Source: Escherichia coli
GTDB lineage: Bacteria > Pseudomonadota > Gammaproteobacteria > Enterobacterales > Enterobacteriaceae
Strand: one strand, 5' to 3'
DNA: 64,000 bases
Assembly (NCBI RefSeq): GCF_050920415.1
Contig: NZ_CP169309.1
Every line of letters starts with the position of its first letter. Position 1 is the stretch's first letter. The notes beneath the pieces are model-generated. The model did no database searches. It had not been told where the DNA came from and saw only the letters and a list, made by a program, of their open reading frames with translations. The position numbers and the translations under genes were made by a program. Below are positions 5,957-64,000 of this stretch, piece by piece.

Positions 5957-8034
<2,078 letters not shown>

Positions 8035-57001: not shown

Positions 57002-57652
57002 TCAATGAGACATCATCTCCTCGACCACTTCTTCGCTACTCAACTGATAGGGATAATACGTTGGCCAGTTTTCCATTTCATTCAATAAAGATTGCTGTGA
57101 ATCATTACCCATAAAAATGTGAAAATGAGATGATTTTCGTGGTGCAATTATATGATCGCTAAATTGTATATATTTAGGGGCTTTGCTTTCAGGATCTTTA
57201 CATTCGAATAAGTAACGAACGCCTTTCTTGCCTGATTTATAGGTGAGTATTTTGTAGCCATCGTAATCATATTTACAGGATGTAGTTTCGTTATTTATAT
57301 GGAATTCAATAATGCCGTCCTCAATACCAATCATTTCGATATCTGTCGAGTAGCCTTTCTGATAATAATCTTTAACTTCTGCGAATGTTTTGGTTTTATC
57401 TGCATTCGCTTTCTTTCGAAAGACGGGGTCAAGCTTGCCATTTTGCAGTAAGGGATAAACGGATTGCCAGACTCCATCCCAGTCACTGAGCGTTCGGTTT
57501 TGTACATTGGCATCATCAAAAACACCGTTAGCCGCTTTTTGTTCGACCTCTGTTAAGGGTTTGCCGTGTGAGTGATGACCATGCGAAAAGGCAGGAGCGC
57601 TAACAATAAAGACACCTAAAGCAATAGCCAGTTTATTAAGACGAATCGCCAA
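57002..57652 (-). CDS. zinT: Periplasmic zinc/cadmium-binding protein ZinT
   Basis: 216 aa, signal peptide then HGHHSHG His-rich motif. Confidence 0.93.
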
Positions 57653-60197: not shown

Positions 60198-60869
60198 ATG
60201 AAGATTCTACTTATTGAAGATAATCAAAGGACCCAGGAATGGGTAACGCAGGGGCTTTCAGAAGCAGGTTATGTCATTGATGCGGTTTCTGATGGCAGAG
60301 ATGGGCTTTATCTTGCGCTGAAGGATGATTATGCATTGATCATTCTGGATATTATGCTTCCGGGTATGGATGGCTGGCAGATCTTACAAACGTTACGAAC
60401 GGCAAAGCAAACCCCCGTTATTTGCCTTACAGCAAGGGATTCTGTCGATGACAGAGTCAGAGGGCTGGACAGTGGGGCAAATGATTATCTGGTAAAACCT
60501 TTTTCATTTTCTGAGTTGCTGGCGAGGGTTCGGGCACAATTAAGGCAACATCATGCGCTGAATTCAACATTAGAAATCAGCGGATTAAGAATGGACTCTG
60601 TCAGCCAAAGTGTGAGCAGGGACAATATCAGTATTACACTGACGCGCAAGGAGTTTCAGTTACTTTGGCTACTGGCCTCCAGAGCTGGCGAAATTATACC
60701 CAGAACGGTTATTGCGAGTGAAATTTGGGGAATCAATTTCGATAGTGATACTAATACGGTGGATGTCGCTATTCGCAGGCTCCGCGCAAAAGTTGATGAT
60801 CCTTTTCCTGAAAAGCTAATCGCTACAATCCGGGGAATGGGGTATTCATTTGTAGCGGTAAAAAAATAA
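60198..60869 (+). CDS. hprR: OmpR-family response regulator
   Basis: ORF 60087..60869; start at MKILLIEDNQ, 223 aa. Confidence 0.9.
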   Translation: MKILLIEDNQRTQEWVTQGLSEAGYVIDAVSDGRDGLYLALKDDYALIILDIMLPGMDGWQILQTLRTAKQTPVICLTARDSVDDRVRGLDSGANDYLVKPFSFSELLARVRAQLRQHHALNSTLEISGLRMDSVSQSVSRDNISITLTRKEFQLLWLLASRAGEIIPRTVIASEIWGINFDSDTNTVDVAIRRLRAKVDDPFPEKLIATIRGMGYSFVAVKK

Positions 60870-62227
60870 TGAAAAGATTATCTATAACCGTCCGTTTAAC
60901 CTTGCTTTTTATATTGCTACTGTCTGTCACTGGCGCTGGAATTGTCTGGACTCTCTATAATGGCCTGGCAAGTGAGTTGAAATGGCGCGATGATACAACA
61001 CTCATTAACCGGACAGCGCAGATCAAGCAGTTGTTAATTGATGGGGTAAATCCAGATACGTTACCTGTGTACTTTAACCGGATGATGGATGTTAGTCAGG
61101 ATATCTTGATCATTCATGGTGATGGCATCAATAAAATTGTTAACCGGACGAATGTCAGTGATGATATGTTAAATAACATACCTACGACTGAGGCAATCAG
61201 TGCAGCTGGCATTTACAGAAGCATTATTAATGACACAGAGATAGATGCTTTACGAATTAACATTGATGAAATTTCGCCATCATTAACGGTTACTGTGGCT
61301 AAATTGGCTTCAGCCAGACATAACATGCTTGAACAGTATAAAATTAATAGCATTATAATTTGCATCGTCGCCATTATACTGTGCTCAGTATTAAGTCCGC
61401 TGTTAATCAGAACGGGATTACGAGAGATCAAAAAGTTGAGTGGGGTAACGGAAGCATTAAATTATAACGACACCCGAGAGCCTGTTGAGGTTATCGCACT
61501 ACCGAGTGAATTAAAACCTCTTGGTCAGGCGTTGAATAAAATGCACCATGCTTTAGTAAAAGATTTTGAGCGCCTTAGCCAATTTGCTGACGATCTCGCT
61601 CATGAACTTAGAACGCCAATTAATGCATTACTGGGTCAGAATCAGGTGACGCTCAGTCAAACCCGAAGTATCGCTGAGTATCAAAAAACAATTGCCGGAA
61701 ACATTGAAGAGCTGGAAAATATTTCGCGGTTAACAGAGAATATACTGTTTCTTGCCAGAGCAGATAAAAGCAATGTTTTGGTGAAACTGGATTCGCTCTC
61801 TCTTAACAAGGAAATTGGGAATTTGTTAGACTATCTGGAATACCTTTCAGAAGAGAAAGAGATTCGTTTTCAGGTCGAGTGCAATCAGCAAATCTTTGCG
61901 GATGAAATTTTACTTCAACGAATGTTATCGAATCTTATTGTTAACGCCATTCGATATTCACCAGAAAAATCGTGCATTCATATAACCAGTTTTCTTGATG
62001 CCAACGGCTCTCTTAATATTGATATCGCCAGCCCTGGATCGAAAATTAATGAGCCGGAAAAACTCTTCCGTAGATTTTGGCGGGGAGATAATTCGCGTCA
62101 TTCTGCAGGTCAGGGGCTTGGCCTTTCTTTAGTCAAAGCAATTGCCGAATTGCATGGGGGAAGTGCTACGTATCACTATTTAAATCAACATAATGTGTTC
62201 CGTATTACGTTACCGCAAAGAAATTAA
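60869..62227 (+). CDS. hprS: Sensor histidine kinase
   Basis: 452 aa, two TM segments, H-box LAHELRTPINAL, ATPase domain. Confidence 0.9.
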   Translation: MKRLSITVRLTLLFILLLSVTGAGIVWTLYNGLASELKWRDDTTLINRTAQIKQLLIDGVNPDTLPVYFNRMMDVSQDILIIHGDGINKIVNRTNVSDDMLNNIPTTEAISAAGIYRSIINDTEIDALRINIDEISPSLTVTVAKLASARHNMLEQYKINSIIICIVAIILCSVLSPLLIRTGLREIKKLSGVTEALNYNDTREPVEVIALPSELKPLGQALNKMHHALVKDFERLSQFADDLAHELRTPINALLGQNQVTLSQTRSIAEYQKTIAGNIEELENISRLTENILFLARADKSNVLVKLDSLSLNKEIGNLLDYLEYLSEEKEIRFQVECNQQIFADEILLQRMLSNLIVNAIRYSPEKSCIHITSFLDANGSLNIDIASPGSKINEPEKLFRRFWRGDNSRHSAGQGLGLSLVKAIAELHGGSATYHYLNQHNVFRITLPQRN

Positions 62228-62334
62228 CCTATGGCTTCAGTACGCCACAGGTTAACCGTGAAAAAACGCAGCCACGCCGTGAGTACTCACGTGGCTGCGA
62301 TTGATTATGCGCTTACATTACAATGTAACAGGGA

Positions 62335-63186
62335 TTAACCCACGTAAGCTGCCAGCATTTCCTGTGCTGCCAGTTTACCCAACGCATTCGCTGCGAAAGG
62401 ACTGTCGCCGGTGAGAACTTTACGGTCCTTATGTACTCGCCCGGTGATGTCGTCATTAATGATGTTCATGCCCATTTTCTTCAGCTCTTCGCCGAAGTAC
62501 CAGGTGAGATGACCCGGCATATAGCCAATATCTGGCGTTTGTTTGTCTGCGGCGTCTGGGAATGCGCAAATGGAATAACCGTTCAGTGGGTTATCGCCGT
62601 GGCGAAGCGCCAGAAATGCCGCCGGGCCGTGGCAAAGGGAGATAACAAAACGGTTATTTTTGATTGCCCACTGCAAAGCGTTAGCCACGTCCTGGCTTTC
62701 AGGTAAACCAATAAGTGCGCCATGACCACCAGGAACAAAGATTGCTGCATATTCGCTGTCAGCATTGAGGCTGGCGACAATATCCGCGAGTTTCTTCGGA
62801 TTGCGGAACAACGATTTATGCTGCTCAAAGAACGGCATTACCTTTTCATCTTTGTGTGGCATAGCCCAGTATTCAAACTTGGTCATCAGGCCGGAAATGG
62901 TCGCCACTTCGAATTCGAAACCTGCCGCATGGAGATGATACAACGGCAGCAACGTTTCAATCGGATGATTACCGGTTGAGAACAATTTGCCATTGTCGGT
63001 CGGCAAATAACGTTCGTCCGCGGCGATCACCAGAATTTTGTGTTTACCGCGATACGGTTTTGGATAGTCCACGCCATCAAGATCAGAGACAGGACTGGTA
63101 TATTGGCTAAGCGAATATTCTGAAGGGAAGAATGCATTATCTTCAGCAGTATCGACCTGCGGATCTTTACTTTTTTGAACAGTCAT
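62335..63186 (-). CDS. hchA: Hsp31 glyoxalase / protein deglycase (DJ-1/PfpI family)
   Basis: 283 aa, MTVQKSKDPQVDTAEDNAFFPSEYSLSQYTSPVSDLDGVDYPKP. Confidence 0.93.
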   Translation of the reverse strand: MTVQKSKDPQVDTAEDNAFFPSEYSLSQYTSPVSDLDGVDYPKPYRGKHKILVIAADERYLPTDNGKLFSTGNHPIETLLPLYHLHAAGFEFEVATISGLMTKFEYWAMPHKDEKVMPFFEQHKSLFRNPKKLADIVASLNADSEYAAIFVPGGHGALIGLPESQDVANALQWAIKNNRFVISLCHGPAAFLALRHGDNPLNGYSICAFPDAADKQTPDIGYMPGHLTWYFGEELKKMGMNIINDDITGRVHKDRKVLTGDSPFAANALGKLAAQEMLAAYVG

Positions 63187-63688
63187 AGTGTATTCCTTGT
63201 TGTTGCTTAGTTAGGTTAGTCACTATATTTGCGACTGAGCTGGTCGCTATTTTTAACCAGGCTGGAAAATTGAGTCAATATATCGAAAGCGGTAGGCGAC
63301 GAGGGAAAATATGTAATGATGATGCTGCACTGATGTTGAATGTTTCTCACGCCAAATTTTCCTTTTTGAGTCATGTGGTCACAAGTGACTTCAATGATTT
63401 TAGACCATTATTAGAGGTCTGGGACGACGATGAGAGATTTAGTGCTATGGAATATTGTTATTCTGTTGAATATTTATATCCCGGACTGCTATAGAAAAGG
63501 CTTTTTTTATGCACTATTTTTGCAAATATTTTTATATGGGAGGCGGTTTTGTTGCGGATTAATTCATAAAGAAATGCATTTGGGGTGGCTGGAAGAGTCG
63601 CTGGTAGATGTTATTGTGCCAGGAGGGGCAGGGTAAGGTGCTGTATCGATATGTTTGGCAATTGCGTGTGCCGTAGATGGAGATGAAA

Positions 63689-64000
63689 TGATCTTACCCA
63701 GTAATAGTGGACACTCGGATAAGTGAGTAAACTCTCAGTCAGAGGTGACTCACATGACAAAATCTGTATCAACCAGCAAAAAAGCACGTAAACAACATTC
63801 GCCTGAATTTCGCAGTGAAGCCCTGAAACTTGCTGAACGCATCGGTGTGCTGCCGCAGCCCGTGAACTCAGCCTGTATGAATCACAGCTCTACAACTGGC
63901 GCAGTAAACAGCAACATCAGCAGACTTCTTATGAACGTGAGCTGGAGATGCCCACCGGGGTTGCACGTCTCAAACGCCAGCTGGCAGAGCGGGATGAAGA
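63689..64000 (+). mobile_element. IS3-like element, left end and start of orfA (continues beyond the window)
   Basis: TGATCTTACCCAGTAATAGTGGACAC terminal repeat; orfA starts ATG 63754, MTKSVSTSKKARKQHSPEFRSEALKLAERIG. Confidence 0.8.

Follow-up and report, generated by a model that had tools for sequence, protein, structure and literature searches.

The window analysed here, a stretch of 64,000 nucleotides from Escherichia coli (assembly GCF_050920415.1, contig NZ_CP169309.1), ends in a region that raises two questions. Upstream of hchA lie about 500 bp of AT-rich DNA in which only short ORFs are found, and directly beyond them begins a sequence resembling the left end of IS3, which reaches the last position of the window. 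Does the AT-rich DNA hold a gene, the remnant of a gene or a small RNA, and is the IS3-like sequence the start of an intact element? The initial annotation had put hchA, both short ORFs, the AT-rich 502 bp and an IS3 left end at 63689 at particular positions, all of which we could verify. The two genes that precede the region are as follows.

60869..62227, + strand: hprS, a neighbour in the window.
62335..63186, − strand: hchA (glyoxalase III, also Hsp31), a 283-aa ORF in the ORF list that RefSeq annotates as 'glyoxalase III HchA' at the identical position in NZ_CP169399.1.

Over its final 814 bp, the window is 100% identical to E. coli MFDS1022581 (NZ_CP169399.1), which is the sole genome identical across this length, and 99.9% identical to strain N96. 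Further left, scattered differences between the window and MFDS1022581 occur as far as 61876, and the stretch at ~57187-57640 of the window is unmatched in MFDS1022581, which carries an IS2 copy there instead (L001 1-448, where L001 denotes this locus of NZ_CP169399.1). Because of these differences, the source of the window must be a related strain other than MFDS1022581. Per 100-bp bin, hprS and hchA are 89–99% identical to their K-12 counterparts, and the synonymous divergence of hchA from K-12 is 0.128. This degree of divergence is unusual for a core region and extends across the hprS–hchA stretch of the window (60500-63688), which suggests that an imported or ancient allele block may surround the porin gene.

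The AT-rich DNA upstream of hchA (63187..63688, 502 bp) has a GC content of 39.8% versus 47.9% across the whole window, and can be divided into the following features.

63187..63290, − strand: conserved hchA-proximal segment comprising the 5′ UTR and probable core promoter, as judged from conservation and a sigma-70-like match.
63231..63247, no strand assigned: GCGAC-N7-GTCGC, a perfect inverted repeat with a T-run after it, located 45–61 nt ahead of the start codon of hchA and resembling a terminator on the + strand.
63270..63494, + strand: 74-aa ORF, judged spurious on the basis of pN/pS, codon-position pattern and the absence of a family match.
63291..63688, no strand assigned: variable AT-rich part of the spacer, non-coding and in approximately neutral drift as judged from identity bins and indels.
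63430..63636, + strand: 68-aa ORF, judged spurious on the basis of an indel-broken frame, pN/pS and the absence of a family match.

Along its entire 502 bp, this DNA is collinear with the region between hchA and yedS in K-12 (NC_000913.3 2035244..2035834), where hchA has the same orientation and the first ~100 bp beside it are nearly identical to the window. It was likewise aligned end to end with strain 700481 and nine further alleles. At the far end, the final ~90 bp of the K-12 spacer are absent before the IS. Placed on the K-12 sequence, the IS junction is at ...GAGATGAAATG|CCAATAAAAAAGCC, immediately before the terminator hairpin of yedS, a porin gene whose orthologue in this lineage is labelled 'ompC' by PGAP. 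Of 5426 complete E. coli genomes, 4867 carry the same spacer, and in most of them it is 88–90% identical to the window allele, which is itself rare and divergent (above 95% identity in just six of these genomes). The DNA at 63187..63688 is the intergenic spacer that normally separates hchA from yedS.

Conservation within the spacer is uneven. Among 14 E. coli alleles, 4–8% of the alignment columns are polymorphic in 63187..63290 versus 22–34% further out, and in 100-bp bins the variable part (63291..63688) is 84–93% identical to K-12, which is similar to the synonymous divergence of hchA. When species-representative genomes were scanned with the 20-mer GCGACTGAGCTGGTCGCTAT, Escherichia albertii was the sole match, too little for covariation analysis. 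The E. albertii spacer can be aligned with that of E. coli only for ~230 bp from hchA, a length that includes the conserved segment, and it contains no ORF of at least 60 aa.

To judge the spacer ORFs, we compared their sizes with those arising when the 502 bp were shuffled 5000 times with composition preserved. A longest ORF of at least 74 aa occurred in 11.6% of the shuffles and two ORFs of at least 68 aa in 1.4%, so the sizes of the 74-aa and 68-aa ORFs are about what chance gives. The 74-aa ORF, which is the commonest plus-strand ORF, exhibits a pN/pS of 0.75–0.96, equal to that of off-frames, and its polymorphisms are distributed 20/15/10 by codon position, with the third position lowest, which is the reverse of a coding pattern. 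The frame of the 68-aa ORF is interrupted by indels relative to K-12 and strain 700481, and its pN/pS is not separable from that of at least one off-frame. Overall, the pN/pS values of spacer ORFs are about 0.5–1.6, like those of off-frames, whereas the hchA control compared with K-12 yielded 0.12 in frame and more than 2 out of frame. By the measures of pN/pS and codon-position polymorphism, purifying selection was absent in every spacer frame.

The spacer ORFs are also unstable between alleles. Seven indel sites, mostly of 1 nt, are present among the 14 spacer alleles, and the strand, frame and length (58 to 136 aa) of the longest ORF vary among them. Some alleles carry a 136-aa ORF on the plus strand or a 116-aa ORF on the minus strand, and the probability of an ORF of at least 116 aa from composition alone is P = 0.012. 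The minus-strand 116-aa ORF, which spans the IS junction in uninterrupted alleles, was tested separately after a suggestive polymorphism pattern of 22/7/16 and was rejected, its codon-position polymorphism being 38/34/24 and its pN/pS ~1. All 68 database relatives of the 136-aa ORF, the longest version, are 'hypothetical' calls of 75–136 aa from Escherichia or Shigella. PGAP calls on the spacer are inconsistent among genomes, usually with none and otherwise with a protein of 136 aa (+), 78 aa (+), 64 aa (+) or 105 aa (−); the genomes in which calls vary include strain 700481 (L003) and those of loci L005, L014, L016 and L017. These 'hypothetical proteins' on the hchA–yedS spacer are probably spurious calls.

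Searches for families and structure in the spacer likewise yielded nothing. The spacer ORFs have no match in Pfam or NCBIfam and none above noise in PADLOC, and an Rfam search at E ≤ 1 over 62200..64000 returned no match. The better-conserved distal block (63495..63688) was folded as RNA on both strands and exhibits no excess structure (z = -0.15 and +0.80).

The initial annotation had proposed that the AT-rich 500 bp may be a remnant of a disrupted gene. On this proposal, or if the DNA encoded small proteins, or a small RNA, belonging to no recognised family, one could account for the ORFs of 116–136 aa that exceed the expectation from composition in some alleles, for the presence in a minority of genomes of a PGAP 'hypothetical protein' annotation at this place, and for the minus-strand ORF that crosses the IS junction where no IS is present. 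However, the frames of these ORFs are broken by indels between alleles, the plus-strand and minus-strand candidates alike have a pN/pS of ~1 and an anti-coding codon-position pattern, and there is neither a domain nor a homologue beyond Escherichia and Shigella, nor an ORF of at least 60 aa in the E. albertii spacer. An RNA product is disfavoured by the Rfam and folding results. Moreover, the spacer is of equal extent in genomes without the IS, and therefore the IS cut no gene there. Considering these results with the alignment to the K-12 intergenic region and the presence of the spacer in most E. coli genomes, we regard a disrupted gene or an unrecognised small product as very unlikely, and the proposal of the initial annotation is not supported. 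The short spacer ORFs are accidents of composition. The longer-than-expected ORFs do leave slight room for the notion that 63187..63688 descends from an ancestral gene that is long dead.

The portion of the spacer nearest hchA has a different character. On the hchA strand, the sole sigma-70-like match of the region consists of TTGACT (63278..63273), an 18-nt spacer and AAAAAT ending at 63249, and it is weak (9/12 to consensus). From this match and from the conservation of the segment, the ~100 bp beside hchA are predicted to be most likely the hchA promoter and 5′ UTR. The inverted repeat at 63231..63247 is identical in all aligned E. coli alleles and in E. albertii, and it could be an operator or a hairpin; we know of no described role for it. 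The core region of hchA is 400–500 bp away from the IS and was left untouched by the insertion. The AT-rich remainder of the spacer is unconstrained and resembles the DNA to which H-NS binds. The hchA promoter was reportedly mapped by Mujacic and Baneyx in 2006. Transcription of hchA is repressed by H-NS, and this repression is lost in the H-NS L30P mutant (PMC11796372). In addition, a SELEX peak for RpoS is listed between rseX and hchA (PMC5493296). The AT-rich nature of the hchA spacer fits repression by H-NS, and we infer that H-NS acts at this sequence.

Beyond the spacer, the following features occupy the remainder of the window.

63689..63727, + strand: IS3-type left terminal inverted repeat (IRL) starting with TGATC, located by alignment from the first base of complete IS3.
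63689..64000, + strand: window part of a 504-bp IS3-like 5′ fragment with 94.0% identity to IS3.
63754..64000, + strand: orfA pseudogene with its ATG at 63754 and a 1-nt deletion in codon 32, as judged from translation and alignment.

The IS3 left end, TGATCTTACCC..., begins at 63689, and the sequence from that position reads TGATCTTACCCAGTAATAGTGGACAC. By using the complete IS3 copy in strain 700481 (L003 5063..6319) as the reference, we measured 94.0% identity between the IS-like sequence and IS3, with a single gap in 503 nt. The terminal repeat aligns from base 1 with four substitutions in the first 39 nt, the extent of the IRL in IS3. Both results bear out the earlier reading of an IS3-group left end. 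The TGATC start of the IRL, the distance from the IRL to the ATG of orfA, the overlap of orfA and orfB, and the A-AAA-G motif are all shared with IS3. Because 94.0% is below 95%, the nucleotide identity threshold of ISfinder for an isoform, the window element would represent a variant lineage just outside IS3 proper.

The closest relatives of the fragment are unnamed IS3-family copies on large E. coli plasmids (e.g. NZ_CP141865.1 and NZ_CP078136.1), which are 96–97% identical over the 5′ 500 bp and carry the same diagnostic substitutions relative to IS3. These copies are near full length (CDS of ~1.15 kb) but are pseudogenes with frameshifts and internal stops of their own, and no intact master copy of the variant lineage was seen among them.

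The translation of the window follows IS3 OrfA (MTKSVSTSKKARKQHSPEFRSEALKLAERIGV) through residue 32 and then departs. The cause is a missing T between 63848 and 63849, within the codon that starts at 63847. In this region canonical IS3 reads GGTGTTACT and the closest plasmid relatives read GGTGTTGCT, compared with GGTGT-GCT in the window. Aligned over 63845..63852, the plasmid copies retain the T of codon 32 (GTGTTGCT versus GTGT-GCT), and therefore the lesion in the window is a genuine deletion. Consequently, orfA is not open over its ~99 codons, and 32 OrfA residues are kept. The gap is common to all four carriers that were aligned, which represent different haplotypes and assemblies. Elsewhere in the fragment these carriers differ: two have an extra G, one has lost 2 nt from the IRL, and there are several SNPs.

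We then followed the fragment past the end of the window in genomes that carry it. In NZ_CP169399.1 and three other carriers, homology to IS3 stops at IS3 nt ~504, a point ~192 bp past the window end, and is followed by unrelated DNA, which in NZ_CP169399.1 begins GGTGTGTGCGCTGCTAATG... The truncation is identical in the four haplotypes. Given that IS3 is ~1258 bp in length, the fragment keeps only the first 504 and lacks the right inverted repeat and the catalytic part of orfB. Approximately 48 codons of orfB are left in NZ_CP169399.1, which do not amount to a DDE transposase; the catalytic DDE residues of IS3 OrfB lie downstream of the retained part. The A-AAA-G frameshift motif is still there (L001 ~6822–6835). 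No IS3 right end was found in the ~3.9-kb insert of NZ_CP169399.1, nor was another IS3-like copy found in that genome, where IS3 similarity occurs in a single place and covers nt 1–504. RefSeq labels the feature 'transposase; frameshifted; incomplete; missing C-terminus'. On the strength of one 100%-identical genome and three further carriers, the genome of the window most likely continues past 64000 as NZ_CP169399.1 does. With no intact orfA, catalytic domain or right end, and with no helper copy in NZ_CP169399.1, the IS3 stump is inert, capable neither of transposition nor of a function of its own.

The initial annotation had noted that the element runs off the window, which implied that it continues. 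If an intact or potentially active IS3-family element did begin at 63689, the change at codon 32 would have to be a variant or a recoding site, and the good preservation of the IRL, of its spacing to the ATG and of the first 32 codons, along with the persistence of the A-AAA-G motif, would be accounted for. We consider this extremely improbable because the homology ends at nt ~504 in the identical genome as well as in the three aligned carriers, the 1-nt deletion wrecks the remainder of OrfA, and RefSeq flags the feature as both frameshifted and incomplete. The −1 frameshift site of IS3 is ~60 codons downstream of the deletion. Still closer to negligible is the chance that orfA appears 1 nt short because a homopolymer or dinucleotide run was misread or misassembled. 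One T has indeed been lost where two stand together, and indel errors are common in such contexts, but four assemblies produced by different laboratories have the gap and their haplotypes differ elsewhere, which indicates one old event rather than an error of assembly. The frameshift near codon 32 that the initial annotation had observed is thus a true deletion common to four haplotypes. Of the two outcomes that the initial annotation had thought would speak against it, an ordinary intergenic sequence upstream of hchA is indeed what we found, whereas an intact orfA is not.

In NZ_CP169399.1, the IS3 stump heads a ~3.9-kb mosaic (L001 6503..10420) that contains the following features.

L001 7006-7431: plasmid-gene fragment of 426 bp with 80% nucleotide identity to large IncHI-type plasmids.
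L001 7667-9043: AT-rich orphan gene of 458 aa, located beyond the window end.
L001 9202-9528: annotated 108-aa 'hypothetical protein' whose N-terminal MITVAL is encoded by codons 1 to 6 of uhpA and whose remainder is read from unrelated DNA.
L001 9529-10420: far boundary of the insert, formed by an 892-bp IS5-family element that is flanked by TA and contains an internal stop.

RefSeq annotates a 100-aa 'hypothetical protein' at L001 7006-7431 that aligns at 75% amino acid identity with a 258-aa hypothetical protein of large IncHI-type conjugative plasmids, over residues 158–258 of the latter. Judging from this alignment, the protein beside the IS3 stump is a C-terminal gene fragment (101 residues) and not a gene. 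Approximately 1.8 kb of the mosaic, including the 458-aa gene and the start of uhpA, is 89% identical to a small island of hypothetical genes in the ilvN–uhpA spacer (e.g. of O55:H7/O157:H7). The normal site of this island in most E. coli is between ilvN and uhpA, whereas here there is a second, displaced copy bracketed by IS remnants, such that the island occupies two places in the carrier genome. The 108-aa 'hypothetical protein' is a fusion artefact of the rearrangement.

Relatives of the 458-aa orphan are confined to Escherichia, in which alleles of ~460–510 aa are 42–98% identical and fall into roughly 50 allele clusters. It has no match in Pfam or PADLOC, and a profile search of PDB sequences was likewise empty. 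An AlphaFold2 model based on a 21-sequence alignment was poor (mean pLDDT 52, pTM 0.36). Scans of the three 'hypothetical' ORFs beyond the window against Pfam, NCBIfam and PADLOC yielded nothing above noise. On a reading that we consider distinctly unlikely, this gene could be a diversifying accessory gene, perhaps one involved in interactions with phages, colicins or the host, that was moved by IS activity beside the porin gene.

The IS5-family element is 96% identical to an apparently intact copy (L009 1500-2391) in O157:H7 strain 4276. That copy lacks the internal stop and adjoins an IS3-family element and genes for TrlF and an ABC-three-component system. Past the IS5-family element, native sequence returns at (TA)GTGTT, just before the stop codon of the porin gene, and the mosaic has replaced ~41 bp of native spacer that include the yedS terminator hairpin. 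The porin gene itself (the yedS orthologue, L001 10409-11655) is intact in this lineage and is a pseudogene in K-12 (L002 4052-5244).

The arrangement is carried by 14–17 of the 5426 genomes. The hchA spacers of the carriers form three haplotype groups with 100, 98.6 and 94.5% identity to the window, which indicates that the insert is old or has been moved by recombination. Three carriers (L005, L007 and L008, ~6550-8010) have ~950 bp of extra sequence separating the 458-aa gene from the IS5-family element. This sequence contains a fragment of an IS4-family transposase, and the window haplotype appears to have lost the whole segment. The porin gene is also interrupted by complete IS3 copies that inserted independently in three other genomes, including strain 700481 (L003 4591-7015), which makes the hchA–porin neighbourhood a site of repeated IS insertion.

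We conclude that the region is highly likely to be an ordinary hchA–yedS spacer and a dead fragment of an IS3-group left end, lying side by side. Both components are already known and are represented or annotated in RefSeq. A more elaborate proposal, in which the ~3.9-kb insert is a retained cargo module with a functional 458-aa gene and the repeat at 63231..63247 is an undescribed operator of hchA, seems to us distinctly unlikely.

For a spacer joined to a dead IS3 fragment, we infer the following history from the anatomy and homologies described above. An IS3 variant would have inserted into the spacer just beside the yedS terminator. Rearrangements mediated by IS elements may then have joined this IS3 variant to the fragment of an IncHI-plasmid gene and to the copy of the ilvN–uhpA island, after which an IS5-family element would have inserted at the far side and decay would have followed. 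The ~41 bp of native DNA that include the yedS terminator hairpin would have been lost along the way. Since then, inheritance or recombination has presumably carried the ~3.9-kb mosaic into the small fraction of E. coli that have it today.

For annotation, these findings mean that the spacer upstream of hchA is standard and needs no gene call, and that truncated, frameshifted pseudogene is the appropriate label for the IS3-like sequence. The effects of the insert are positional, in that the native terminator of the neighbouring porin gene has been removed. The result matters little beyond the tidying of annotation, and its modest interest resides in the loss of this terminator and in a site where IS elements and foreign scraps of DNA have landed repeatedly.
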